A stretch of 64,000 nt of DNA from an uncultured virus (IMG/VR IMGVR_UViG_3300018414_000001) (Duplodnaviria > Heunggongvirae > Uroviricota > Caudoviricetes). The DNA is taken from IMG/VR virus record IMGVR_UViG_3300018414_000001. One strand, written 5' to 3'. The position numbers and the translations under genes are program-made. The notes under the pieces were generated by a model. That model had not been told where the DNA came from, did no database searches, and saw only the letters and a list, made by a program, of their open reading frames with translations. This document shows positions 2,415-38,466 of the stretch, one piece after another. Every line of letters begins with the position of its first letter. Position 1 is the first letter of the stretch.

Positions 2415-4700
2415 ATCATAGCCCGTGCATATAACGCTTCGACCGCCGCCAATATCTGCTGGTGTTCCGTTTCCGTCAGGCTGGCGGTATGCGCGATCCC
2501 GCTCTTGCCGACCCAGGTCCGATCATAGGCCGCGAAGGAGATATCGCTCAAGCGGCGGCCGCACTCGCAGAAGCCGTTAATGCCGGAGAAGGTGTGGCCC
2601 GCTATTGTTGACACACGATCGCTTTCCCCGAGATATCATGCACCCAGCGGCCGTTGCGCCATATGGGCTTGTAGCCCGAGGCGCACCAGGGGCAGCTCAC
2701 GCGGCCAATCTCAACGCAACAGGAGGCGGAACACGCGGCGATGCGGCCAATAGCCGTACGATCCGCCATGCTGGCAGGCGCAATGTCACGATAATTCCCA
2801 TCACGCCTCAACCTCCTTCATCATCGTCGCTCGGGCTTCATCAATCCACTTGATCCGATCCCGGACCCCAGCCTCCGGTGCAAGACGCGCGATGGCGTCC
2901 TCTCGGGCGATGCGGAGCAGCATATCAAGCGCAGCGCGTTCGGCCGAGGTCATCGCCATATCCACCAAGCCAGCGCCACCAGCCCAACAATCGCAACCAC
3001 CAGCCCGGCCGTGACCCACCGTTCCGTTGGAGTGAGCGGGGATGACGGAACCCAATCGTCGTCGCCAAAGGGGTCGCTCATAATTGCTCACTCACGAAGC
3101 GCGCCAACACCGCTTCAACCTCGGCCGGATCAAACCATCCGCCCTCGCCGTCCGAGTGCAGCCTCAGCGTCCCGTCCATCTCGTGCCACATCTCGAACCG
3201 CCCAATTCGGAACGGATCATATGGGCCGCGCGCTTCACCGTCGAGGACTCTGGCGGCGCGTTGTATGGCTCGGATTGGATTCGCGGGACTGAGCGACGAG
3301 ACAATCAGGGCCATCCGACCCTCCGTTGATCGCCTTTCCGCTCCAGCGACCCCGACGCCATCGGGGGGGCGGTCGGGTCTTTTGGCGCCTTTTTGAGAGC
3401 TTCCTGTACAACGACCCGATCATCCTTCGTGACCGACCCAGCCAGGATATCCCGCGCCACCTGTTGCGCCCGATCATGGATATCGGCGACCGAGTCGCCA
3501 TCGTTGACGCGCATCAGGGCGTTTCGCAGATCGGCATACTGGCCGCGTAGGACGGCAAGGCCATGGTTGAGGGTGGCCTGGGCTTCGCGCGCCGCCGTTC
3601 GGACCTCGACAACGGAGGGCGTGTACCAGGCGTGCTCAAATATCTGATCCGCCATCCGCGCGAACGCTTGGTCGGGAACTTCCCGCCGCGCGATCTCGCC
3701 ATAGGTGCAATCAGCAAACATGGCCTCAAGAAAAACAGCCAAATCATGCCTGTCTTCGTCGGTGGGGCTGAACTGATGTGGTTCCAGCGCCCGCATCGCG
3801 CGGTAAACGTCTTCCACGTTTAAAGGATCGCCGGTCAGGCGCCCACCCGCCTCGATCATTTCCGGCGTCACCGGGATTTCAGGCCCAACCCAAACAGACG
3901 GCGGCCGGAAAACGCCATCCGGGTCAGGCGACACCGACATATTCCCTGTCCACCCCTCAAGCCCCGCGCCATCCGGCTCCGTCAGGCGCGCGGCGGCGAG
4001 GTCGGAGGGCGAAACAGGATTCCCGGCGTAGATTTCCGCATACGCCTTCGCGCGATTGCGCTTCGCTTCGGGCGGGACGGGCGTAGGGCCAACACACATT
4101 CCGGGAACTCCCCGACAATCAGGACAGTCTGGATCACCGCACAAAAACGGCATAATCCGGCAATGGTCCATCACCCAACCTCCCCAACAACATATCCTCG
4201 GCTTCGCATACACCGCGCAAACTCCCCGCGGGCCTCCGTTCTCTCCGTCTGCGCGACAACCGCGATCCCAACCACCGGCAGAAAGAACCCCGCCGCGAAC
4301 GCACGCGCCTGTGCCTCTGGCCGATTCGCCCAGGTCCGGGCAAAATCCTTGCACTCCAAAATGTCCATCCGCCGGGCATCGCCCGAACCGGACACCGAGG
4401 ATGCCAATTGGTAGGAACCGCAGGAAGTAAGGAAAAACAGGGGAATGAGCCACCGCATCACGCATCCCCTCCAAAATCCCAGCCATCGCAGATCAACGGG
4501 CCGGGCGCCGAGTTCCTGATCAGCAAGTGAATCAAATGGTTCGGGCAAAACAACTCCCTGATATCCCGCAAATCGCGCTGGCGGATGTACTCCCGTGTTA
4601 TGCCGGACAACCGGCGGGTGGTTTCGGGATCACGCGGCGGAACCGGCGTGGTATCGACCGAAAAATATCCCCGATGGCCGGTCATGCCGCGATCCTCCAT
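2411..4700 (-). other. Run of small overlapping hypothetical phage genes, including a lipoprotein-like ORF (MRWLIPLFFLTSC) ending at 4171
   Basis: Chain of start/stop-overlapping ORFs ending at 2411, 2602, 2801, 3078, 3305, 4171 and 4458. Confidence 0.6.
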
Positions 4701-5206
4701 TCCCCACGCCTGACCCGCTTCCGCCCCGTCCGGTCACTCACCCCGAACGCGAGACTCGCCAACCGGATCGACATGAACTCCCCCCGATCCGTAACCACCG
4801 GACGCGCCCGGGGATGCCGATTCCCCAGCCGTAAATGATCCCCCGAAGGCCGGACCCTCTCCTTGATAACCCTGACAACCGGCGCACGAACAACCGGCGC
4901 GGCATACACATTGCCATCCTCATACCCAGAGACATCATCATGCCGCGCCATCCGATACCCGCCACGGCGAAACTTCGCCCGGTCGAGATCGTGTAATTCC
5001 CGCTTCCACCACTGATCCCACTGAAATACGGAGAACCGGAACGGAATACCCCTTGACCCGGCCTGCTCGCGATGACGGTCCCACGAAGCAAACACATACT
5101 CAGCGATCCCGTATGTGGCCTGCTCGTTGCGGGCGCGCTCATACTCCGGGGTTGAGGGGCGGCCACGAAGAGTCACGTCACTTCTCCCCACGCAAACGAG
5201 TGTCAC
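4682..5206 (-). CDS. His-Me finger/homing-endonuclease-like protein with C-terminal NUMOD1-like HTH
   Basis: RGIPFRFS..W..WW...MARHDDVSGYEDGNVY and HPRARPVVTDRGEFMSIRLAS..FGVS motifs. True start is probably internal. Confidence 0.5.
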   Translation of the reverse strand: MTLVCVGRSDVTLRGRPSTPEYERARNEQATYGIAEYVFASWDRHREQAGSRGIPFRFSVFQWDQWWKRELHDLDRAKFRRGGYRMARHDDVSGYEDGNVYAAPVVRAPVVRVIKERVRPSGDHLRLGNRHPRARPVVTDRGEFMSIRLASLAFGVSDRTGRKRVRRGEWRIAA

Positions 5207-5498
5207 GCTTCGGAAAATCAGTCATCGCCGGGAGGTTGAGGGACGCTATGGCCTTCGGGCTCGCCGAGACGGGCGCGCGCGGGACGTACACAGTAGAACC
5301 TCTACCACGCGAGAACGGGGGCGGAGGGACAGGTGTGGTAGCAACCGCGTCCAATGGTTCATCTGGCCGACGCATTTTAAGCCGGATCAACTCAGCCACC
5401 GATACGCTCATGGCCGTGGCGCGACGGCGCCAATCAGCCAGCTCCTCAATCGGAACGCGCATCTCGAATTTCTCAGACTTCGATGAAGTGCCCGCCAT
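5178..5498 (-). CDS. Ribbon-helix-helix (RHH) DNA-binding protein
   Basis: KFEMRVPIEELADWRRRA..MSVSVAELIRL. GGAGG RBS and three palindromes upstream. Confidence 0.6.
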   Translation of the reverse strand: MAGTSSKSEKFEMRVPIEELADWRRRATAMSVSVAELIRLKMRRPDEPLDAVATTPVPPPPFSRGRGSTVYVPRAPVSASPKAIASLNLPAMTDFPKRDTRLRGEK

Positions 5499-5514
5499 GC
5501 CGATCCCTCCTTAA

Positions 5515-5568
5515 GTGTCAGGACACTATATACAGGTGTGGGGACACCCCAGCAAGGTGTCAGGACAC
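5515..5568. promoter_or_regulatory. Three GTGTC-NN-GACAC operator-like palindromes at 21-bp spacing
   Basis: GTGTCAGGACAC at 5515 and 5557; GTGTGGGGACAC at 5536. Confidence 0.7.
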
Positions 5569-5573
5569 CAACA

Positions 5574-5783
5574 TCACATCCTCAAGCCGATGTCGCGCTC
5601 CAACGACACGACCCGGACGGTCAACGCGGCGATCTCAGCATCCTTCGCCGCCGCACCCTCCACACTGGCGAAGATCAGACCCGACACCGACGTTTTTCCC
5701 TCGGCCGCCCGAGCCTGCCACCGCGCCCAGGTCTCGTCATCCAGCCTGAACGTGCGAACCTTCAACGCCATCAGAGCACTCAT
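5574..5783 (-). CDS. RHH DNA-binding protein with coiled-coil tail
   Basis: KVRTFRLDDETWARWQARAAEGKTSVSGLI. Confidence 0.65.
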   Translation of the reverse strand: MSALMALKVRTFRLDDETWARWQARAAEGKTSVSGLIFASVEGAAAKDAEIAALTVRVVSLERDIGLRM

Positions 5784-5797
5784 TCATCAACGATGCC

Positions 5798-5830
5798 GGT
5801 ATATACCACCCGACCAGCCCGGTATATACC
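5798..5830. promoter_or_regulatory. Two perfect GGTATATACC palindromes
   Basis: At 5798-5807 and 5821-5830, directly upstream of the RHH gene 5574..5783. Confidence 0.7.
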
Positions 5831-5837
5831 GCCAAGG

Positions 5838-6047
5838 TTAAATCTTATCCACGTCCATCTCATCCATGACCCTGTTCGCCCGCTCCCCAGATAACCTCCG
5901 CAACTCCCATTCCGCCACACTTCCAAGCCCACGCTCAACCACGATCTCAAGCTGAGCCTGACCGGACCGGCGTTCGGCCTTCGCGATAACGACAATCTTC
6001 GCCCATAGCTTCGGAGGTAACCGACAGGGGACAGTTTTTCTTTCCAT
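5838..6047 (-). CDS. Arc-like RHH protein
   Basis: KTVPCRLPPKLWAKIVVIAKAERRSGQAQLEIVVERGL. Confidence 0.65.
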   Translation of the reverse strand: MERKTVPCRLPPKLWAKIVVIAKAERRSGQAQLEIVVERGLGSVAEWELRRLSGERANRVMDEMDVDKI

Positions 6048-13435: not shown

Positions 13436-15340
13436 TCACGGCCCGGTTTTCGCGAACAACGGCGCATCCAGGCCAGACCACCGCTTGATCCGATGCTCGA
13501 TGTCCCGCACGTGCTGCGCCTCTTTCTCGATCAACGTGCAGACAAAGCCCGCGAGCATGCACGCCTCGCCAGTTGTGCCCGACCCGGCGAAGCAATCCAG
13601 CACATGACCGCCGGGCGGACAGGCGAGCGTGACAAGCCAACGGATCAGATCAACGGGTTTGACGGTCGGGTGTTTGCTGTCCGCCCTGTCGGCCTTGTCT
13701 GCCTTTGCAGTGTAGAAGAAGCGCGCGGCGGAACCGGTGTCGCCGAAGCCAGGATCACCAGCCGAAAACATCCCGGTCGGAACATTTTCCACGTTGCCAC
13801 CGCCCGCGTTGCCGATCCGCCCGCCAGACGATCTGCCTAAAACCGGAAACCCCGCCAGCACTTCCTCGCTTCCGTCGTGGGCCACGTTCGCGGGAAATCT
13901 CCCGAGAGTTTCAGCGCGCACCACGTTGGCGCGGACCTTGGCCGCGAACGCCTCAGATGCTTCAGGATCGTCCATCCACGGGCGTCGCCACCCTTCATTT
14001 GTGAATTTTCCGGAGGTCTCCGCCTTCTCTCCGCCACCACCAAGGCTGTCGGCGGTCGGCACTCGGCACGCATCCACATTGATCGCGCCCGTTCCCCACC
14101 GCAGCACGTTCGCCGCGACCGTGCTTTCGGACAGCGGCTTGCGCGCGACGACAATGGGTTCAAACGCAGGCTTTAGAGCAGTGCCAAGTCCGAGTGGAAC
14201 AACAGGTTTACCGCACCGACCACAAAGCGGCCATGCTCCGCCAGCTTGTGGCTCCGGTTGTCCGGCCATAGTTCCAGGTTCGTCCGGTCCTGATTGTTCA
14301 ATGGCTGATGATCGCAATGGTGGACGCACTCCGCACGGGTCAATGGACGCCCCATCCAGCGGGCCATCACCAGCCGGTGCTCCATCACGTAGCCGTCCCG
14401 TCGCGCCATGCAAATCAGGTCCGGCGGACAACGGACGTACCGGACTTGCTGATAGTTTCCCTTCCGATGGCGCAGCGTCACGCCGCCTTTCCATGCCGGG
14501 TTGCGCGCGCCCCTCATCTTTTGAATTGCGTTCCGACGCCCCTCCGGCGATACCGCCGCCGTCCCCTTGTGCCCGTGCTGCGCCCACTCCCTTCCGCGAA
14601 ATACCCCGTTGCACTGGTAGGAGCAAACCGGCGTCTTGACCCGAAGAAGATGCTTTGTGTTCCGCCAGAACGGTCGGCCGCAATTCGCACAAATCGCCTG
14701 AGACACCTTGGTTTTCATGGTCGGAAGATATATTGGATATATGGCACTGACAACGGCTTTCTGGTGATAGAGCTTTGTCAAGATTTAGACTTTTTGGGAA
14801 TCCGCTTCCGTACAAGTAGGCCACCGTGTCCCGTATCTCGAACCCGGCATCCTCGATCGCGCACACCAGTCGGTGTGAGGTCCGCGTGCCACCGAAGGCC
14901 AGCAGATAAGCGCCGGGCAACAACACGTCATAGACGGCGCGTGCCCAGGCTTCGCACCAGGTCTGATAGGTCTGCATCTGCCGGTGACGGCCGTACATCT
15001 TGTCCGGTGCAGCGCCCTTCACGCGCCAGTCAGGGCTGGCGCACGCGCACTTTTTCTTGCCCCGCGCCCGTCCGCCGCACGTCGCGCAGGTCGGATTTGC
15101 CCCGCCGAACTGGTCATTGCCGCTTGTGAACGCGGGCCATGGAGTCTCACGTTCCCCGATTCCAGGCTTGGCGAAGCCAGCGCCCGTCTGCCACGCATCC
15201 CCTTTCCACGGCGCGTCCCAATCCCGGCCCATGAACTCCAACCCGTAAGGCGGATCGCAAACGCAGGCATGAAACCGCTCGCCGGTCGCAGCGAGTTTCG
15301 GTAGTTCGACCAGGCAATCGCCGTGGAGGATGCGGATCAC
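13436..15340 (-). CDS. Beta-class N6/N4 DNA methyltransferase with a large internal insertion
   Basis: CDPPYG catalytic motif, YGSGFPKS, GTALKPAFEPI, HPTVKP and VLDCFAGSGTTG SAM-binding motif. Confidence 0.9.
   Translation of the reverse strand: MIRILHGDCLVELPKLAATGERFHACVCDPPYGLEFMGRDWDAPWKGDAWQTGAGFAKPGIGERETPWPAFTSGNDQFGGANPTCATCGGRARGKKKCACASPDWRVKGAAPDKMYGRHRQMQTYQTWCEAWARAVYDVLLPGAYLLAFGGTRTSHRLVCAIEDAGFEIRDTVAYLYGSGFPKSLNLDKALSPESRCQCHISNISSDHENQGVSGDLCELRPTVLAEHKASSSGQDAGLLLPVQRGISRKGVGAARAQGDGGGIAGGASERNSKDEGRAQPGMERRRDAAPSEGKLSASPVRPLSAGPDLHGATGRLRDGAPAGDGPLDGASIDPCGVRPPLRSSAIEQSGPDEPGTMAGQPEPQAGGAWPLCGRCGKPVVPLGLGTALKPAFEPIVVARKPLSESTVAANVLRWGTGAINVDACRVPTADSLGGGGEKAETSGKFTNEGWRRPWMDDPEASEAFAAKVRANVVRAETLGRFPANVAHDGSEEVLAGFPVLGRSSGGRIGNAGGGNVENVPTGMFSAGDPGFGDTGSAARFFYTAKADKADRADSKHPTVKPVDLIRWLVTLACPPGGHVLDCFAGSGTTGEACMLAGFVCTLIEKEAQHVRDIEHRIKRWSGLDAPLFAKTGP
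14173..14718 (-). CDS. HNH endonuclease nested in an alternative frame of the methyltransferase
   Basis: CANC..CSYQC Zn finger, NPAWKGG, DGYVMEHRLVMA..GRPL..ECVHHCDHQPLNN...NLEL. Confidence 0.85.
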   Translation of the reverse strand: MKTKVSQAICANCGRPFWRNTKHLLRVKTPVCSYQCNGVFRGREWAQHGHKGTAAVSPEGRRNAIQKMRGARNPAWKGGVTLRHRKGNYQQVRYVRCPPDLICMARRDGYVMEHRLVMARWMGRPLTRAECVHHCDHQPLNNQDRTNLELWPDNRSHKLAEHGRFVVGAVNLLFHSDLALL

Positions 15341-24826: not shown

Positions 24827-25537
24827 TTAGTAGACGTGTTCGGCATGGCTTGGCTCCTTGATCTCCTGTTGAACGCTTCGTGTCGGCACGCGGTTCGGCG
24901 GTTTGAAGGGAGGGACGCCAAAGACAGCCCCGAAGTTCCCGCCTTCGTCGGCGTCCCACTGTTCCTTGGCGAGTTTGGCGGACCAGCCTCTGGGGCGATG
25001 GCCACCATGCTTTTTGATCCACCCGAGGATATCGGCCTCGGTGTACTGTTCATCGTCCGCGCTGTAACTGACGACCTCCAACAGGTCCGTCATCGGCACG
25101 CCACGAACGAACAGGTCAATCGCATACCGCTCCGTCGTGAAATCGTCGGCACCCTGTAATACGCTGGTGAGATATTTCTTCTCCAACGCCAAGGTGTAAA
25201 TCTGGACCGCGAGTTCCGCCTCCCGTAAATTCATGCGGAACAATTCGGCGATGTCGCTGTTATCCTCGATAGTGGGTTCGCGCCGTTCAAGTTCTCTGAC
25301 GGTGACTCGCATCCTCTGCGGCTGTGTGTCGGGCACGGGGAGATATCTGACGGCGACACGAATAAGCGCCCTCGCTTGCAGCAAGCGGAGTTGGTCGGCA
25401 GCCTCTTTGTCATCCCATGTGAAATAGTCATGCAGAGGGGAGTTTGGGTTTCTCGCGTCCTCAAGAACGGCCTCCGGGCGCAATTCCCCGTGGGTGCGCC
25501 GGATCAGTTCAAGATGCTCGCGTTGAATTGGGGTCAT
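24827..25537 (-). CDS. Conserved phage protein, candidate partner of the RAMP-like gene
   Basis: LELIRRTHGELRPEAVLEDARNPNSPLHDYFTWDDKEAA..RLLQARALIR motif. Start MTPIQ at 25537. Confidence 0.7.
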   Translation of the reverse strand: MTPIQREHLELIRRTHGELRPEAVLEDARNPNSPLHDYFTWDDKEAADQLRLLQARALIRVAVRYLPVPDTQPQRMRVTVRELERREPTIEDNSDIAELFRMNLREAELAVQIYTLALEKKYLTSVLQGADDFTTERYAIDLFVRGVPMTDLLEVVSYSADDEQYTEADILGWIKKHGGHRPRGWSAKLAKEQWDADEGGNFGAVFGVPPFKPPNRVPTRSVQQEIKEPSHAEHVY

Positions 25538-26010
25538 TCGCTCGCGCCTCCGCAACGGATACAAAGTCTGTTGCCCGGGCCGTCACTCATGAACAGTTTC
25601 TCGCAGCGTAAGCACTTTCGCTGCGCGCGACGGTCGGCAGAACTGATGGTTGGCCGATTGGTCTGAGCCATATAAGGAGTAGGAGGATTAACCGGAGCGA
25701 CCGCAGCCGGTTTGAATATCTGCGCGGTTCTTTTTCTCATTGGGCATAAGGAAGCCACGGGATCAGAGACTCGCCTAAGAGGCATCGGCCGAGGAGCCAG
25801 TTTCATTCTGCTGCGCGCGCAATAGACCATGGCGATATACGGAAACTCCATTATCTTCATGATTTCTGAGCCGACGACACCGTCGTTCCAAAGCTTGGCG
25901 AACTGCGCCTTCTTTTCTTTTGACCATGGCGGCCCGTAGCGGCGGTTATGGCCAGCACCCATCGGACAACCGAAGCTGCTTAGCATCGGTTCTGCTTTCC
26001 GTTTTGTCAT
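25534..26010 (-). CDS. GcrA-like N-terminal HTH plus C-terminal Zn ribbon
   Basis: WSKEKKAQFAKLWNDG..SEI; RKCLRCEKLFMSDGPGNRLCIRC. Confidence 0.55.
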   Translation of the reverse strand: MTKRKAEPMLSSFGCPMGAGHNRRYGPPWSKEKKAQFAKLWNDGVVGSEIMKIMEFPYIAMVYCARSRMKLAPRPMPLRRVSDPVASLCPMRKRTAQIFKPAAVAPVNPPTPYMAQTNRPTISSADRRAQRKCLRCEKLFMSDGPGNRLCIRCGGASE

Positions 26011-26204
26011 GTCGCCACCATAACCGGATGCTCGTCTTTAGGATCGCGCACCGTAGTCGGGTAACGCCGGTCCAGATATCGGCAGCGCATACATAGCCGG
26101 AGGTTCTGACTGCCGAACCGATGACCACTAAGGTCACATTCGTCTATAGGTGCTGCCGTCGAGGGCACGATTGTAAATTGCAACATACTGCGCCTCACGA
26201 TCAT
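26007..26204 (-). CDS. 65 aa hypothetical protein downstream of the array
   Basis: GAGGAG RBS then ATG at 26204 (MIVRRSMLQF...). ATGA overlap with the next gene. Confidence 0.55.
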   Translation of the reverse strand: MIVRRSMLQFTIVPSTAAPIDECDLSGHRFGSQNLRLCMRCRYLDRRYPTTVRDPKDEHPVMVAT

Positions 26205-26220
26205 TTTGCTCCTCGGGTTT

Positions 26221-26245
26221 GGGGTGTCGTTATTACCGACACCCC
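26221..26245 (-). terminator. 9-bp hairpin closing the array (no U-tract on the minus strand; terminator or processing stem)
   Basis: GGGGTGTCG-GTAATAA-CGACACCCC. Confidence 0.55.
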
Positions 26246-26896
26246 TCCCCGCGTTGCGTTGCCTGTCCAGTCCCGGCCACGCGAAGCTTTGCCTAGCCGT
26301 TCCAAGCCTGCGAAGCCTCTCCCGGCGATTTCGTACCGAGCCGGGCCTCGCCATACCAAGCCACTCCTGCGTAGCCCTGCCGTGCCAGTCGCGGCCACTC
26401 GTGACCGCGCCGGGCCTAGCCTGGCCCATCCAAGCCTGCGCTGCCGATCCGTGCGACGCCATTCCAATCGACGCCGCGCCGAGCCTGCGTCGCCATGCCC
26501 GGCTATTCCGTGCCAAGCCTTGCTTGTCGCGGCCTCGCCATTCCTGCGATGCCCCGCCACGCGTAGCCGTTCGTCGTCTCGCGACGCCTCTCGACGCTTG
26601 CGAAGCGTTGCGTGGCCGTGCCAACCCACACCAATCCGCGTCGTTCCTTGCCTAGCCTGCGGTGCCACGCCGCGCCTGTCGTGACCGTTCCTGTCCTCGC
26701 ACCGCCTTGCCTGCGGAGCCAAGCCAAACGTCGCCTCGCCGCTCGCCGCCTTGCCGTTCCTGCGCTGCCCAACCAATCCGGGCCAATCGCGGCGCAGCCG
26801 TACCGTCCGTGCCATTCCTGCGTTTCCAACCCTATCCGCGCGTCTCCTGGCCCCGCCTCGGCGTGCCGTGCCAGCCCTGACCACACCTGCCATGCC
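26244..26896 (-). ncRNA. Array of 11 guide-like units of (GGN/CGN)NN pentamers separated by CGCA (VIPR-type RNA array)
   Basis: Separators seen on + as cctgcg/cttgcg at 26307, 26366, 26435, 26484, 26543, 26597, 26656, 26710, 26759, 26817, plus cctgcc at 26886. Spacings are 59,69,49,59,54,59,54,49,58,69, i.e. 5n+4 with one 1-nt exception. Confidence 0.85.
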
Positions 26897-26916
26897 AAAC
26901 AAAGGGGAGCGAACCC

Positions 26917-27678
26917 TCAAGCCGCATCGGCCTCTCTAACCAGTTGATCCGCATGTTGCCGTTGTGATCCTGATGAAATCGACCGGGAAGCCAATCCGTT
27001 GTCCAACTGCGTTTCGCCCTCTTGGACGATATCGAATGTGCCGAAGCCGATGCCCGCCGACATTTTGGAATCCGGCCTTCCTTCCCCAATTCCCCCTTGC
27101 GCTCCAACCCGGGCCAAGAGGTTGATGACATCGGCGGGGGAGAATTGATCAGCGTCGAACTTCACCCGAAGGGTCGCGCCCCATCCGCCAGCGGGCCACT
27201 GCGGCCGCACACGAAGGTCAACCACTCCTGTCGCGTTTCGCGCGGCCATCACGGATCGTTCGGGCCTGCCGCCGGTAATCCGAACCAACGGCGTCCCATC
27301 GTCCGCGTCCCACCCGTCCGCGATAATGAACAGACTGAGTTTCGCCAACGTCATCTTGAACCCCACCAATCGGCAGGCCGAGATCATGCCGTTGCGAAAA
27401 GCCCCCGCCGCGATGCCATCCCATCCTTCGCGGGACAGATGACGCGCACCGTTAAACACGGCGTCGAAATCTTTAGGCTCGCGCTTCCGCCCCTTGTTGC
27501 TCTGGGACCCGGCCTGTTGGGTAGTCGCGATCTGCTCCAACGCCTTCGTTGAGAACTTGTTGATCATCAGGGGAGCCGTTCCGACGATATCGACAACCAA
27601 TTCCCTTAAATTCGGTGGACTGATCAAGACCTGTGTCTGCATCCCCACCGAGGCTTTAGTCGCTGCTCTTGCCATCAT
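26917..27678 (-). CDS. RAMP/Cas7-like RNA-binding protein (Vipr-like effector)
   Basis: VDIVGTAPLMI first strand, GIAAGAFRNGMISAC helix and C-terminal Gly-rich loop GGIGEGRP..GIGFGTF. AAGGAG RBS. The array begins about 20 nt after the stop. Confidence 0.8.
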   Translation of the reverse strand: MMARAATKASVGMQTQVLISPPNLRELVVDIVGTAPLMINKFSTKALEQIATTQQAGSQSNKGRKREPKDFDAVFNGARHLSREGWDGIAAGAFRNGMISACRLVGFKMTLAKLSLFIIADGWDADDGTPLVRITGGRPERSVMAARNATGVVDLRVRPQWPAGGWGATLRVKFDADQFSPADVINLLARVGAQGGIGEGRPDSKMSAGIGFGTFDIVQEGETQLDNGLASRSISSGSQRQHADQLVREADAA

Positions 27679-27732: not shown

Positions 27733-27941
27733 CCTTTAATTTCCCTTTGCTGCTTTTTTTCCGCCATCAATGCGAGAACAACTCTGGTCTGTTTGGGAAC
27801 CTTCTTCATTCCCCGATAGCGTCTCGCCTGCCTGGGGCTGATTTCAAGCAGCGCGGCAACTCTCCTGTCCATTTCCAGGACGGGGAGAGTGATCGAAATT
27901 CCATTGGCCCTCAAAAGAGTGGCATACGCCTGGTCTATCAA
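27729..27941 (-). CDS. Small HTH regulator
   Basis: RRVAALLEISPRQARRYRG..KVPKQTRVVLAL. Confidence 0.6.
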   Translation of the reverse strand: MIDQAYATLLRANGISITLPVLEMDRRVAALLEISPRQARRYRGMKKVPKQTRVVLALMAEKKQQREIKG

Positions 27942-28984
27942 TGGAACTCCGTCCCGCCCTTTCGGGTCAGATATTCTGGAGATATGTATTTCACGATGAC
28001 ACGCCCGATCCGGGGGTCTGTCCGCTCTTTTTGTGATCTCACGACGACTCCTTCTCGCATATGCGCCATATTACCGGATATGGTCGCACCTGAAGCCAGC
28101 CGCTCGACGATGCCGCCAACAAGGGGGCCGCTGTAGAGAATCGGAACCGACGGCGCGATCTCTCCGACAACCCGATTGAATTCCTCCCGGTTAAGCCACC
28201 GGCCGCGCCCCGGAGTGCCCAGGTAAATATCGAAGGCCGAGAAAGTCGGTTCTGCCTGCCCATACGACAGGTCTTGAACCGTGCCGCCGTATATCTCCCC
28301 GAAAACAGTAGCAGACCGGCCATTGAAGGCCCCTCTTAACCGGCGTCTCATTCCAAATGCTGCTTTGAGGTAAAGGTTCTCAGGATTGGGTGCCTTCAGG
28401 ACGTGTCCTGTCTCGCCCAGGCTCTTGCTGTAAACAAGGGTGTCGCCGTCCGGAAGCCGAGGGTCGTTCAAGCCGGGAAGGTAGCCTATGGCGCACATGG
28501 TCCCGTGCAGCTTTTCGGTGATCTCGACTGGCTCTCCGTTCCTGACGACATGAGGCCAGCGCCGGGCGCTTCGTATATCGTAAGCGACTGTCGAACCAGG
28601 AAGAAAGATGCACTCCCCCCTCCATGGGGTGGGGATGGGTTGTTCGTATTTGACCACCCCAAGGGAAACTGAAACATCCTCTCCCACCTTCCCGCGGGGG
28701 ATAGGGCCGATCAGAATACCCTCACTGAACGCCCCCCGGAGCCTGTAGGGCCGCACCCGATTCTTCTTCTCCCCGAATAGCTTGGCCTGCCCTTTGAGGG
28801 ACGCCGCAAGATCACCGGGTAGCACGGAGTCAGGCGGCAGGTAGATGGCGTTATCGGAATTCCCGTAACGTCCTTTGGGCACAATCACATCGATATCGAA
28901 AACCTTGGCGAGTTCAATCTCGTCGGCCCCTGGGATGGGACTAATCGACTCAATCCGAACCACGGGGCAAGAAAAATCGCTCAC
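27938..28984 (-). CDS. ATP-dependent RNA ligase, DRB0094/Rnl2-like family
   Basis: N-terminal PIPGADEIELA, motif I TEKLHGT, VFGEIYG, FDI, REGVVV, K.ISPEYL. Confidence 0.9.
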   Translation of the reverse strand: MSDFSCPVVRIESISPIPGADEIELAKVFDIDVIVPKGRYGNSDNAIYLPPDSVLPGDLAASLKGQAKLFGEKKNRVRPYRLRGAFSEGILIGPIPRGKVGEDVSVSLGVVKYEQPIPTPWRGECIFLPGSTVAYDIRSARRWPHVVRNGEPVEITEKLHGTMCAIGYLPGLNDPRLPDGDTLVYSKSLGETGHVLKAPNPENLYLKAAFGMRRRLRGAFNGRSATVFGEIYGGTVQDLSYGQAEPTFSAFDIYLGTPGRGRWLNREEFNRVVGEIAPSVPILYSGPLVGGIVERLASGATISGNMAHMREGVVVRSQKERTDPRIGRVIVKYISPEYLTRKGGTEFH

Positions 28985-29817
28985 CGTTCATTTTCCCCCT
29001 TGACTGTGCTGGCCGTTATGTCCATGTTGCGGGTGTCCAGCAGACTCCCCGCTGGACTGACAGACGGAGAACATGATGCCATGGGCAACTTTGGCTGCGA
29101 TGCAATCCTGGCAAGCGGCGCCCTCTCGGGCGCCGCAGCCATGTCAGGGGTATATTTCCTCCGCAACTCGCTAACCGTTTCATCGTAGATTTCGACCAAA
29201 CAATCAGAGCGCAGCCTCGCGGCATTGATCACCGGAGAGGCAAGCCGCATAAGAGTTTCCGCTAAAACGTACGGCGTGAACCTCAAATTCGATATTATCT
29301 TGTTCCGCAAGCGATCAGCGATGCGCTGAAAGCCAGCATCGCTGACAATTATCTCCCCCGCCGCTCGGCGCAATGACCCAAATAGAACCGGCGATAATGG
29401 TCCGCTACCGTCGCCATGAACTGCATATTGATGACGACAGGAGCCGCAGCGATAGGCTCGTCCCTCGATTACTCGGACATCGTCCGAACCACACCACCCG
29501 CAGAGCCGAACCGTAAGCGGTAGACGCCATTGGGCCAGAAGCCTAGCGCCGTCCGCTGTGTTGCATTTATGGCACGCCGCCGCGCAGGTCTCCCAACAGA
29601 CCCTGCCCCCCGCACTCGCTGGGATGACATGCTCAATCGTGCAGAGTGTATCGCCTCGCCGCCAACGGTTCATCACCACGCCGCAGTAGCAACAGCGCCA
29701 GTTTTGAGCCTCGGCAAGCCGGTCCCGCAGAAGCATGGAGGGGGCAAGGGCGGAATGGTTCTGATCAACCTCCATGAACGCATAAGCCGCCTTATGGTCC
29801 CATCGGTCGATAATCAT
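28981..29817 (-). CDS. HNH endonuclease domain protein
   Basis: EAQNWRCCYCG..TIEHVIPASAGG..AACHKCN. Confidence 0.8.
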   Translation of the reverse strand: MIIDRWDHKAAYAFMEVDQNHSALAPSMLLRDRLAEAQNWRCCYCGVVMNRWRRGDTLCTIEHVIPASAGGRVCWETCAAACHKCNTADGARLLAQWRLPLTVRLCGWCGSDDVRVIEGRAYRCGSCRHQYAVHGDGSGPLSPVLFGSLRRAAGEIIVSDAGFQRIADRLRNKIISNLRFTPYVLAETLMRLASPVINAARLRSDCLVEIYDETVSELRRKYTPDMAAAPERAPLARIASQPKLPMASCSPSVSPAGSLLDTRNMDITASTVKGENER

Positions 29818-30139: not shown

Positions 30140-30295
30140 TCATCGTGACGACAGTTCATGAAGCATGATTTTCCGATACCTCTCCACGGTGCCTTTGCTG
30201 ACACCAAGATCGGCCGCGATCTTCCGAAGGCTCTCTCCGGCCTGCAACCGCTCGATCATCATCTCAATGATGGCCTCCGGCAGAAAGTTTCCCAT
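30140..30295 (-). CDS. 51 aa HTH protein
   Basis: Manual translation MGNFLPEAIIEMIERLQAGESLRKIAADLGVSKGTVERYRKIMLHELSSR. Confidence 0.7.
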   Translation of the reverse strand: MGNFLPEAIIEMMIERLQAGESLRKIAADLGVSKGTVERYRKIMLHELSSR

Positions 30296-31674
30296 CACCA
30301 CTCCAGGGCGTTCAGGACACCAGCGGGAAGCGTTGAACCATAAGAGTCGGTGTCATCGTTGTCCCACTTCGGAGCATCCAAAGAACCCACCATGTAAGGG
30401 TTGTCCTGGCTCTTGCGGTAGGATCGCACAAAGGCACGCAACACATCCGGCGACCCCTTGAGGTCGTCCAGAGAGGTTTGTCCTTCCAGGATCGCCAGCA
30501 GCACGATCTGGCAAACATCGGCCCGCATAAAGTCTGGGTAAGCGCGAGAGACCAGTCCCGAGACCTCTATCGTCAGGGCCGCGCCATTTGCATCCGCGAA
30601 CCTGGGAAGCGTCGGCAGATATGGATAGGCGGATAGGATTTTCGGTTGCGCCGGAACCGATATCCTCGGCTTGGAAAAGAGCGGGCGCCAACTCGCCGGA
30701 ATTGTGACGAAAGGCACATTGTCTCTTGCGTACCATGCGATGGAAGTTGCCGACCGGCCCAAGGCCGCGGCTGCCTGATCTGGCGTCGCACCCGCCTCAG
30801 CCAAGGTCGTAAGATCATGTCTCTCCTGCGGCGTCCACCAGCCGCGAGTGGACCAGAGATACCCATAGGGGTAACGAGGCGCAGCAAGCAAATCGGCCAC
30901 ACTACGATCTATGATGGGAGCGGCTTCCGCTGTTTCTTTACGACCCTGCCAGGACTGGCGCATCTTCACGGAAAACGCGCCGTTTTTACAAGCTTTGCAG
31001 ACGGTCGAAGTCAGGCCCCATTCTCTAGCCGCGCCGCTGCGGAATTGGAAATCCGCGGAAGGTTTCTCCTGGCCGCAGTCGCGGCAAATCTTAGTAGGCA
31101 ACAGCGCGTCCAGTTTGGCGCGCGGCGCGTCAGGAGCCGCCTTCCCCCCTTGCCAATAACCGGTGAAATGGCTCTTTCCTTCCAGATTTCCGCAAAGCAT
31201 TTCCTGCGCTTTGCGGAACAGGATGTATGCCGTCTTGAAATTGCACCCGATGTCTTCCGACAACCGGCTGATCGTCACGTCGCCCTTATTGCGCTGGACG
31301 GCTGACAGGAGAAGCAAGATCGTTCTGATCGGAACCTTCAAACCGGCGAACACCGTCCCGCTCGTCAGACTGAAACAAGGATGGCGACCCTTGCATTTCC
31401 ATCGACTGGCGCCGTTTGCCTCGCGGCAACTGTAAACTTTCGTGCTGCTGCACGTTGGGCATGTCGGTTTCCCGTCCGTTCCGGGCCATCGCAAATGACG
31501 CCACATTGCTTCGGCCTCTTCGTCTGTGAGGCCCTTTATGGTGCCCTCGTCAGGCAAGAGCGGATAAGACGGAGCCGCTTTGGCGCTAACCGCCTGAGGC
31601 GGCAAAAGTTTCTCCCACTCCGAGGTTTTCCAGGAGTTCAGAAACTCATCAAGGTATGTGGTTGTTCCGTCCAT
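30295..31674 (-). CDS. IS1595-transposase-derived protein (Zn ribbon + HTH, DDE core absent) fused to additional domains
   Basis: LTDEEAEA..LRWP..GKPTCPTC..FSLTSGTVF..LSEDIGCNFKTAY, then almost directly GYWQ. No E-x-D-E/G, TDE or N-x-x-E catalytic motifs seen. Confidence 0.75.
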   Translation of the reverse strand: MDGTTTYLDEFLNSWKTSEWEKLLPPQAVSAKAAPSYPLLPDEGTIKGLTDEEAEAMWRHLRWPGTDGKPTCPTCSSTKVYSCREANGASRWKCKGRHPCFSLTSGTVFAGLKVPIRTILLLLSAVQRNKGDVTISRLSEDIGCNFKTAYILFRKAQEMLCGNLEGKSHFTGYWQGGKAAPDAPRAKLDALLPTKICRDCGQEKPSADFQFRSGAAREWGLTSTVCKACKNGAFSVKMRQSWQGRKETAEAAPIIDRSVADLLAAPRYPYGYLWSTRGWWTPQERHDLTTLAEAGATPDQAAAALGRSATSIAWYARDNVPFVTIPASWRPLFSKPRISVPAQPKILSAYPYLPTLPRFADANGAALTIEVSGLVSRAYPDFMRADVCQIVLLAILEGQTSLDDLKGSPDVLRAFVRSYRKSQDNPYMVGSLDAPKWDNDDTDSYGSTLPAGVLNALEW

Positions 31675-36509: not shown

Positions 36510-36971
36510 TCAAGGATATGCGTCCTGATTATCGCTTACGCATCGCCGCAACGGCGATGGCCTCGGCGTAAACCCGTTGCGATGCGCGATGCCGCTGATG
36601 ACGTTTTTCTTCACACCCAGTTCCCGCGCGACCTGAGACGCGGTTAATTCCCGATCCCAAAGTGTGCGGGCCTGCGCGATAAATTCGTCTCCGTGATGCC
36701 GTAGAGATTTCGGCCCGCAGGTTCGGCAATATCTGATTGACCTATGCCGCTCTGGCACGAACAACACATCGCACGCCTCGCAGTTCATCATGCCGTACCG
36801 GACACGCTTATCAAGCGGCGCGCTGACGCGAGGAATGGACCGGCGACGTAGAATTTGTTGAACGCGCTGCCATGATATTCCAAACATCCGTGCGATATGA
36901 CCCACTCCTTGTCCCGCATCGGACAAGATGTAAATTCGTTCGTTGCGGTCTGTTTTTTCGGGTTCTGCCAT
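36510..36971 (-). CDS. HTH - Zn finger - GcrA-like HTH protein
   Basis: IARMFGISWQRVQQIL; CEAC..CRTC; LWDRELTASQVARELGVKKNVISGIAHR. Confidence 0.65.
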   Translation of the reverse strand: MAEPEKTDRNERIYILSDAGQGVGHIARMFGISWQRVQQILRRRSIPRVSAPLDKRVRYGMMNCEACDVLFVPERHRSIRYCRTCGPKSLRHHGDEFIAQARTLWDRELTASQVARELGVKKNVISGIAHRNGFTPRPSPLRRCVSDNQDAYP

Positions 36972-37142
36972 TATCCTGGCTCCTTTTTCTGCCTCTCCAT
37001 TTCCGCCAGCGCCGCACAGGCGAGGCGCATCCAATAGTCGATGTATGCCTGCCCGAGGAATTCATTTTCCCACAGCCGTTCGATCTCGTCACGTCCCAGC
37101 CCGGTGCAGGCCCCGTGGAGCGCGATGGCGATGGCGCGGGGG

Positions 37143-37997
37143 TCAGTCATCGTTCCCCTCGAACAACCCGGCCTGACGCGCGGGGACGGGGGTGGCGCGG
37201 GGGATGAACAGATCAGCCTGACGGTAGGCGGCTTCGATGCGGCGGAGGGCGATGTCGAAGTAGGGTTCGTGGATTTCGATGCCGATTGGAACACGTCCCT
37301 GTTTGATCGCCGCGACCATGCTTGTCCCCGATCCCATAAAGGGGTCGCATACTGATTCGCCTGGGTCAGTCCATGTCGCGATGTGATCGTATGCGAGGGC
37401 GTATGGCATTGGTGCCGGATGATCGCCAGCGTCGCCCATTTCGGCGTTCGGGATAACCCACCAATTCCGCCGCAACCCCGTGGACGGCACAAGTTCGCCA
37501 TTCCGTTTGGGGACACTCTTACTGCCGTCCGCCTCACGCCGATTCCCATGAATAACCGTTCCACCCCATTTATTGCGCCAGTCCTTAATTCCGTTGAAAT
37601 GAGCAGGCGCACTCTTTGAGAAAACAAACATGTACTCAAAGGCGGGATGGTAACGGTTGGCGTCTGGGAAAGTGACACCCTCACGGCAATAGATCATCGT
37701 ATCGTGCAGCCGTAAACCACACTCAATCGCGTGCAACGCATGACGAAAACTCTCGCCTGTTTCGCTGCCGTCGATGACCTGATCCGCGACATTCCAAACG
37801 CAAACGCCGCCCGGCAACAACAAATTGGCGATATGGTTGATTACCGCGAGACAATTTACAGGTGCGTGGCCACCATAATCGCGCACATTGCCGTACGGCG
37901 GGCTCGTTACGACGCAGTTGATTGGGGCAAGCCCCGGCAGAATCTCCCTGCAATCGCCCAAATAAAGTCTGGCATCCCCGATCACTTCAACCCTCAC
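37143..37997 (-). CDS. N4/N6 DNA methyltransferase (beta class)
   Basis: LYLGDC, VTSPPY, HPAPMP, DPFMGSGT. GTG start overlaps the upstream stop. Confidence 0.9.
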   Translation of the reverse strand: MRVEVIGDARLYLGDCREILPGLAPINCVVTSPPYGNVRDYGGHAPVNCLAVINHIANLLLPGGVCVWNVADQVIDGSETGESFRHALHAIECGLRLHDTMIYCREGVTFPDANRYHPAFEYMFVFSKSAPAHFNGIKDWRNKWGGTVIHGNRREADGSKSVPKRNGELVPSTGLRRNWWVIPNAEMGDAGDHPAPMPYALAYDHIATWTDPGESVCDPFMGSGTSMVAAIKQGRVPIGIEIHEPYFDIALRRIEAAYRQADLFIPRATPVPARQAGLFEGNDD

Positions 37998-38466
37998 GCC
38001 CCACCCTCCCGCAACACCCAGTTCCCGTTCCGCGCCTTCACGAATCGATAACCGGCATACTTTTCCCGTGGCCGAATACAATAGATACAATTTGCGCCCG
38101 CCATGTCGTCAATATGATACCATCCAACACTAAGCATGGTTGCGTCATGACTCACTATGGCAGACGGCCACCGGAACCCGGCCCAGATCGTGGCGTCGGC
38201 ACGGTAGACGGAACCGTTGATCTCGATGGTTGCCGGGGTCAAGGGGAGGGTGCGGGTCATGCTCAATCCTTCAACACCAGCGCGGTCAACTCAATCTCCT
38301 TGGCCGCGATTTCCCGGTCCAGTCTGGCCAGATCGCGGGCCTGACGATTACGGTCGTGGCGCAAGTCTTCCAACATATGGAGTGCCTTCCACCACCGCGC
38401 GGCGCGTTCTGGTGGTCGCGTGTCGCGATCGGCAAGAAAAGTTCTGGCGCTAGGATGTGTCATCCC

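Follow-up and report, generated by a model that had tools for sequence, protein, structure and literature searches.

The locus described here raises the question of what an array of pentameric repeats is doing in a phage genome, and what its variable dinucleotides would be directed against if they are read as guides. The stretch of DNA analysed (64 kb, called the window below) is phage DNA that encodes Erf, an exonuclease, a helicase, replication initiators, an Ant antirepressor, RusA and DNA methylases, and the host of this phage is probably an alphaproteobacterium. Two N6/N4 DNA methylases (13436-15340 and 37143-38090) and a protein with a GcrA-like domain (36510-37034), all encoded on the minus strand, point to a host whose cell cycle is under methylation control of the alphaproteobacterial kind. 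The same phage sequence was found again in freshwater metagenome runs, and the array is absent from the nearest virus record, G001.

A first-pass annotation, made from the letters of this DNA, had proposed that the dinucleotides, written as the first two positions of codons, read as conserved motifs of IS1595 transposases with the wobble position ignored. This decoding has been borne out, and it equals the published code of VIPR (Viral Interference Programmable Repeat) systems. The link to the RAMP protein encoded next to the array had been missed, and the mechanism turns out not to be new. Our answer, which we consider likely, is that the locus is a VIPR system with a staggered array, whose guides are directed against IS1595 and IS1 transposases, and that the phage would thereby silence these genes across whole families. 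The main parts of the locus lie on the minus strand, as do all adjoining genes:

26917..27678, minus strand: vipr gene, encoding P0002 (253 aa), recognised by a profile match to a Vipr structure and by its RAMP fold

26230..26905, minus strand: staggered vrRNA array of about 120 GGY-NN pentamers making up 11 guides, recognised by lag-5 periodicity and a dynamic-programming parse

26221..26245, minus strand: stable hairpin that closes the array, with a 9-bp GC-rich stem and a fold energy of -30.6 kcal/mol

The array begins 12 nt past the vipr stop codon. Within 26230-26905, base identity is 0.48 at a lag of 5, as compared to 0.25 at a lag of 3, and as all six reading frames are open across it, the array is no ordinary coding region. 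Read on the minus strand, GGC-like triplets alternate with variable dinucleotides (NN), and in the dynamic-programming parse 83 of 123 repeats start with GG, while 62 of the 123 carry a strict GGY. The parse reproduces every dinucleotide string quoted in the first-pass annotation, whose units U2-U9 are the guides g1-g8 below; the extent given there (26372..26818) lies within the array, but the array continues beyond it in both directions. A candidate pentapeptide or GxAxx repeat ORF at 26201-26920 was rejected, as the sequence lacks a 3-nt period, stays open in all six frames and matched no family.

The guides, g0 to g10, have 9-15 repeats each and are bordered by repeats that are one base short (…NN-CGC-A-GGC-NN…); nine CGCAGG junctions, each holding one 4-nt repeat (A-GGC), delimit the 11 guides. 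The last repeat before each internal border is CGC and not GGC (10 of 10 units; CGCAGG, once CGCAAG), a regularity that is not seen in the arrays of L125, L128 or Quico, and this invariant CGC may be a processing signal. There is no structured 3′ pseudoknot tail between the guides, only the 4-nt repeat, and a single hairpin follows the last guide. With z = -4.1 against 200 shuffles, this hairpin would be a 3′ cap or a terminator. The array matched no Rfam family, a sigma-70 promoter scan found no promoter, and PADLOC returned no match. A 262-nt contig from an RNA library spans 26513-26774 with zero differences; as it may stem from DNA carried over and does not show the strand, it is a weak hint that the array is transcribed. 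Contigs from DNA sequencing runs covered parts of the stretch, and run X5, with 0.92 of its words, gave no contig. Just past the hairpin starts an ORF for a Cys-rich product of about 65 aa (26007-26204, minus strand), which has a GAGGAG ribosome-binding site and overlaps the start of P0003.

The protein encoded directly upstream of the array had previously been assigned only to a PHROG family of unknown function. A profile built from P0002 and 8 homologues matched a single structure in the PDB, 36pp_D, the "SUSP1 Vipr protein" (E=5e-8), with the significant alignment to SUSP1 Vipr confined to the C-terminal ~48 aa. P0002 shares the Arg of the thumb and the Arg-Pro of the G-loop in this alignment, and the SUSP1 G-loop contacts D177 and W178 are replaced by E and G in P0002. 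Foldseek with an AF2 model of P0002 (pLDDT 74) gave Csm3/Cas7 as the best hit (E ~5e-7, TM 0.4-0.5). By its profile match and its predicted fold, P0002 is a Vipr homologue, a RAMP that would be expected to polymerise on vrRNA. Earlier ideas of TRAP-like ring binding and of an R-loop origin were abandoned upon recognition of this homology.

VIPR was first described only in 2026 (10.64898/2026.04.26.720920; 10.64898/2026.04.26.720927). According to the main text of the first of these preprints, phage-encoded Vipr RAMPs operate with vrRNAs of 9-16 YNNGG repeats, target choice resting on the NN pairs under a "1-nt skip rule", and the skipped base falls "overwhelmingly" on the codon wobble position (10.64898/2026.04.26.720920). 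Targets are described there on either DNA strand, self-targeting as absent and degenerate vrRNA repeats as common (10.64898/2026.04.26.720920). A Vipr protein is a minimal RAMP made up of an RRM core, a thumb and a G-loop, and its vrRNA region, of at least 4 tandem pentamers, adjoins vipr. A figure legend of the same work introduces "staggered arrays", in which consecutive vrRNAs overlap by 1 nt, such that the end of one is the start of the next (10.64898/2026.04.26.720920, fig. S18 legend). The companion preprint describes one protomer per repeat, with GGY buried, NN paired, one target base flipped out and an R-loop triplex (10.64898/2026.04.26.720927). The mechanism, the wobble skip and the staggered architecture are thus already in print.

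Our locus resembles the type II VIPR systems of Escherichia phage SUSP1 and a Pseudomonas fulva prophage in that a single RAMP gene lies beside tandem GGY-NN pentamers, and it shares with them the 1-nt skip, the location of the skip at the wobble position, targets on either strand and the lack of self-targeting. The repeats per guide number 9-16 in type II VIPR and 9-15 here. However, the type II vrRNA is ~100 nt long and has a conserved 3′ pseudoknot tail, whereas the guides of our array abut without such a tail, in keeping with a "staggered" layout and not with type II. The 1-nt overlap between guides that the legend describes for staggered arrays agrees with the single 4-nt A-GGC repeat per unit of our array, while the CGC triplet before each border departs from that description and is a feature of the studied array only. 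A further difference lies in the targets, which are a satellite or prophage regulators in the case of SUSP1 and P. fulva, but would be IS transposases here. With the Cas7/Csm3 filaments of class 1 CRISPR systems, the locus has in common the RAMP fold, one protomer per fixed guide increment and periodic base flipping; it differs from them in its 5-nt register with 2 paired bases, and in having 3 displaced guide bases for each displaced target base. In contrast to class 1 CRISPR, the window has neither cas genes nor a repeat-spacer array nor an adaptation module.

To what, then, do the guides correspond? The preprint regards an NN match of at least 80% as indicating a natural target (10.64898/2026.04.26.720920), and we have used this threshold. 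Four guides match transposase genes of the IS1595 type at or above it, with sense or antisense orientation as indicated:

26762..26815, minus strand: g1, 11 NN including the short repeat GG-AC, antisense, IS1595 motif QNGKRQVVV, 9/11 NN (82%)

26713..26757, minus strand: g2, 9 NN, IS1595 motif TNGAEEFFS, 9/9 NN (100%)

26600..26654, minus strand: g4, 11 NN, IS1595 HTH motif YKTAFVLTHKL, 11/11 NN (100%)

26546..26595, minus strand: g5, 10 NN, IS1595 motif VEVDETYVG with the first catalytic Asp, 9/10 NN (90%)

All four motifs are those that had been read from the array in the first-pass annotation, including the treatment of the short pentamer of g1 as GG+AC in the reversed reading. The target ORFs L189, L165, L163 and L134 carry PF12762 (E 1e-34 to 1e-42) as well as PF12760, and judged by these domains (DDE_Tnp_IS1595 plus zinc ribbon) the target genes of g1, g2, g4 and g5 are of the IS1595 family. 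Matches of guides to IS genes are in codon phase, occur on either strand and end at the guide borders.

The g5 pattern, GTNGANGTNGANGANACNTANGTNGG, was found in genome contigs at no fewer than 120 loci, as compared to about 17 expected for uniform bases; among the matches listed, VEVDETYVG is in frame at 119 of 120, and PF12762 was present at all five loci checked for domains. For g2, 96 metagenome loci were retrieved: TNGAEEFFS is read at 66 of these, with RMRRAEI following in almost every case, as in IS1595 ORFs, and the remaining 30 are in unrelated frames; the exact g2 pattern had 0 matches in viral contigs. All four viral-contig matches of g4 are at 11/11 NN, and each lies inside an IS1595 ORF. 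In 401 Alphaproteobacteria, searched with up to 2 mismatches, g4 gave 4 matches against 1 for a reversed-pattern control, three of the four being inside full-length IS1595 ORFs. For g1, the match at the amino-acid level rises to 10/11 in P0142.

Across 254 IS loci, sites with at least 80% NN identity numbered 22 for g1, 97 for g2, 11 for g4 and 132 for g5, where the counts for g2, g4 and g5, though not that for g1, are partly circular because the loci were collected with those same patterns. The same loci held zero such sites for g0, g3, g6, g7, g8, g9 and g10. In ORFs that had been collected with the pattern of another guide, g1 in antisense reads NQNGKRQVVV and g4 reads YKTAFVLAHKL. Shuffled NN orders reached 7-8 matches at most in the IS1595 tests, as compared to 9/9, 11/11, 9/10 and 9/11 for g2, g4, g5 and g1, and the gaps fall on codon position 3, the matches of all four guides being in codon phase on IS1595 genes. 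Reading each NN with the next base of the array as a real codon was considered and rejected, since g4 then yields, by eye, a TAG stop and wrong residues.

Not one IS copy reaches the 80% threshold for every IS1595 guide. The ORF L189, for instance, scores 9/9 for g2, 8/10 for g1 (in the parse without the short repeat), 8/11 for g4 and 6/10 for g5. The IS1595 subgroups differ by guide, in that g5 fits the version VEVDETYVGG, while the type matched by g1, g2 and g4 reads VEVDGGYFGG.

Two further guides point to IS1595 genes less clearly:

26438..26482, minus strand: g7, 9 NN, antisense, possibly the IS1595 HTH region (LDVQYKTAF / LEVTQKTAW)

26369..26433, minus strand: g8, 13 NN, antisense, possibly the IS1595 C-terminal VSR.W.GYWQ

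At 6-7/9 NN, g7 does no better than the shuffle maximum. For g8, which had been read in reverse as LVSRTWAGYWQ, only 7/13 NN match in L139 (HPVSRQWKGYWQR), which is under the 80% criterion, and a second IS1595 variant, P0137 (CRPSVDWAGYWQR), gives 7/13 at the amino-acid level. These weaker matches of g7 and g8 (54-78%) fall on homologous places in the gene, yet they are not above shuffles; the reversed reading of g7, put forward as tentative from the start, is not supported, and that of g8 is weak.

The claim that the phage targets the most conserved codons of an insertion-sequence family stands, but its restriction to a single family does not, since g6 and g0 match IS1 transposases:

26487..26541, minus strand: g6, 11 NN, IS1-family motif IERQNLTMRME in the catalytic Glu region, 11/11 NN (100%)

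26820..26884, minus strand: g0, 13 NN, IS1-family motif VQLTTDG..YL with the second catalytic Asp, 10/13 NN

26310..26364, minus strand: g9, 11 NN, antisense, possibly the IS1-family HTH ISRIVDVSINT

26230..26305, minus strand: g10, 13-15 NN, possibly the IS1-family motif YNFVRIHK, with an ill-defined 3′ border

The evidence for g6 is a single exact 22-base match in one collection, that of viral contigs, where it lies at L265 1201-1232, in codon phase and inside an ORF with PF03400 and NF033558; none of 500 shuffles equalled it in L265. The PF03400 match of this ORF (E=1e-6) is above the cut-off, and its NF033558 score is under the cut-off of that model. Among the 120 homologues of the L265 ORF that were listed, many are named "IS1 family transposase" by their sources and nearly all have PF03400. 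Going by these assignments, the target genes of g6 and g0 are of the IS1 family (DDE_Tnp_IS1).

For g0, 10/13 NN (77%) match in L267, where 0 of 100 shuffles were as good, and 11/13 (85%) match at the amino-acid level in P0070, one of the 120 homologues; on the L265 ORF itself, g0 reaches 8/13 at VQLTTDGNKVYLE, which 1 of 500 shuffles equalled. The NN-level test for IS1 was made on alphaproteobacterial copies, the family being present in 11 of 121 sampled genomes. In these copies g9 attains just 6/11 NN, which is not significant, while at the amino-acid level it reaches 9/11 in P0057, where the best shuffle scored 7. Similarly, g10 is not significant at the NN level in the alphaproteobacterial IS1 copies; in L265 it matches at 6/14 NN, which was equalled by 13 of 500 shuffles, and at 8/14 at the amino-acid level. 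Exact scans of viral contigs with g9, g10 (first 11 NN) and g0 (last 10 NN) gave 0 matches each.

This leaves one guide for which no target was found:

26659..26708, minus strand: g3, 10 NN, at chance level

Nothing in any IS1595 or IS1 set was above shuffles for g3, and there were 0 exact matches in viral contigs; the reading of this unit as a transposase motif, also offered only tentatively, is thus not supported. As to self-targeting, no guide matches the window at more than 6 NN, a score within the shuffle range, and against the phage's own genes, including that for P0001, no guide was above shuffles. When the 51 guide units of the related arrays in L122, L124, L125, L127, L128, L129 and Quico were compared with the IS1 and IS1595 sets, one borderline match was obtained. 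IS targeting is therefore specific to the studied array, and the guide repertoire differs between relatives, as expected of a programmable array.

Besides the array, the phage carries a gene that is itself related to the presumed targets:

30295..31674, minus strand: P0001, homologue of the IS1595 transposase N-terminus (Zn ribbon plus HTH) with no DDE domain; PF12760 is matched, PF12762 is not

Residues 49-166 of P0001 are 40% identical to the N-terminus of the target-type transposase L189 (E=2e-26), which belongs to the IS1595 subgroup matched by g1, g2 and g4. About 290 further residues are unrelated to the transposase. An apparent trace of the transposase C-terminus in P0001, the letters GYWQ, was discarded as a 4-residue match (E=2.7). 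The P0001 gene matches g4 at 4/11 NN only.

Some truncated transposase derivatives, IS1 InsA and the Tn5 inhibitor among them, inhibit transposition. Like these, P0001 keeps the Zn ribbon and the HTH and is without the DDE domain; in contrast to them, it is phage-borne and has the ~290 extra residues. P0001 may be a piece of a transposase that has been domesticated or acts as an inhibitor, and it is possibly linked in function to the VIPR locus.

If the locus works as the published systems do, its action can be pictured as follows. The array and vipr would be co-transcribed from the minus strand, and the transcript would give rise to ~11 vrRNAs bounded at the one-base-short repeats. Each pentamer would be bound by one Vipr protomer, with GGY buried and NN presented. 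By analogy with the work on SUSP1 and P. fulva, the NN of the filament would pair with double-stranded DNA at two bases out of three, the third being flipped out, and, again as in the SUSP1 and P. fulva preprint work, an R-loop triplex would form and block transcription. In this way the phage would silence insertion-sequence transposases across a whole family: as the guides lie on catalytic and DNA-binding motifs and are blind to the wobble position, a single guide would suffice for thousands of copies that have drifted apart. The phage would probably gain by curbing IS activity against its own genome or a lysogen, or by disabling mobile elements that depend on such transposases.

More tentatively, the array may be read as a family-wide defence against transposons in which nearly all guides sit on codons of the catalytic Asp/Asp/Glu residues and of the HTH, with P0001, a DDE-less version of the IS1595 DNA-binding module, deployed alongside it and escaping the guides through divergence of its codons. 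We regard this stronger version as plausible, though somewhat short of an even chance. Under it, six of the eleven guides would count as established and four more as suggestive. With the same reserve, we consider that conservation at the protein level might here substitute for the adaptive acquisition of spacers.

The silencing of host insertion sequences has to be weighed against other explanations of the same matches. The array might instead be aimed at competing prophages, satellites or plasmids that happen to carry IS1595 or IS1 genes, in line with the published model of warfare between phages. Satellites and prophages are indeed the natural targets in the published account, as far as its main text goes, and the exact matches of g4 and g6 sit in viral contigs of 33-146 kb; on the other hand, six guides fall on catalytic or DNA-binding motifs of transposases, no typical phage gene was found as a target, and these motifs are also present in copies on the chromosomes of many bacteria, such that we think this explanation unlikely, at perhaps one chance in several. 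More doubtful still is the idea that IS copies merely serve as landmarks, at which the phage would silence neighbouring genes, block replication or recombination, or recruit P0001 or a nuclease, without limiting transposition being the purpose. Some published VIPR types are described in the preprint's main text as having nuclease or helicase accessory genes (10.64898/2026.04.26.720920), and our phage encodes an HNH endonuclease three genes upstream of vipr and, in P0001, a protein with an IS1595 DNA-binding module. However, the HNH endonuclease, the RNA ligase encoded near it and P0001 are without homologues in related vipr loci and hence are not conserved partners. As an observation apart, the RNA ligase (PF09414) and the HNH endonuclease occupy 27938-29817 on the minus strand, just upstream of vipr, and with no homologue of either at the related vipr loci, a functional link with vipr is doubtful.

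A more fundamental objection is that the decoding might be chance or pareidolia, with the array being nothing but a protein-binding repeat (TRAP-like, with GGC triplets) or a pentapeptide ORF. It gains some force from the fact that ambiguous codons had been resolved toward IS1595 consensus motifs in the first-pass annotation, that five of the 11 guides have no significant match and that all six frames are open. Yet exact gapped matches of 18-22 bases occur in codon phase in two transposase families, where shuffles reach 7-8 at most, there is no 3-nt periodicity, and the adjoining protein is a Vipr homologue, which together make a chance origin of the decoding highly improbable. We therefore return to a VIPR system directed against transposases as our preferred explanation of the locus.

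What may be new in this is the target class. As natural VIPR targets, the preprint's main text reports satellites of phages, regulators of prophages, further VIPR loci and viral sequences (10.64898/2026.04.26.720920). The main texts of the three 2026 VIPR preprints and of a fourth that mentions VIPR, together with one supplement, name no transposase or insertion sequence as a target, while their target data tables may list some. IS transposases as targets, and the presence of a DDE-less IS1595 homologue in the same phage, are thus the potentially novel points. If our interpretation is true, insertion-sequence transposases are a new VIPR target class, and if the reading as a defence against transposons is true, VIPR extends from conflicts of virus versus virus to those of virus versus transposon. 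The use of a wobble-blind code would also become plain, since one guide of 9-11 codons fits diverged IS copies by the hundred, in several phyla (at least 120 genome loci for g5 and 66 metagenome loci for g2). The locus would also allow repression of transposition by a phage to be put to a direct test.

The arrangement of a vipr homologue followed by an array is not confined to this phage, as a 5-nt periodic array lies downstream of the P0002 homologue in 7 of 9 viral-contig loci. The border type with a 4-nt A-GGC repeat is also seen in L125, L128 and Quico. In the related phage L125, the array (4655-5950) comprises 25 guides over 1.3 kb. The array of L128 (3590-4095) is partly duplicated, and two of its similar guides differ at a single dinucleotide, CT versus TT; both encode Leu, a change that would be permitted under selection at the codon level. 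Some of these loci share a further gene with ours:

24827..25564, minus strand: P0004, candidate accessory (vap-like) gene, a weak assignment from a shared N-terminal region of ~50 aa

Homologues of these N-terminal ~50 aa of P0004 are encoded beside the vipr homologue in L128, L129 and Quico; P0004 itself has neither a Pfam nor a PADLOC match.

Two of the relatives are cultured mycobacteriophages, and the unannotated VIPR loci of Quico and Florinda would make easy experimental systems. In Quico, gp57 (L121 2150-2749) is 34% identical to P0002. It is adjoined by a VIPR-like array of GGC-NN units with A-GGC borders at L121 2880-3140 (NC_028751 ~37295-37555), which was left unannotated in the record and lies near Ant, Cro and repressor genes. 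Mycobacteriophage Florinda has the same arrangement of array and homologue as Quico.
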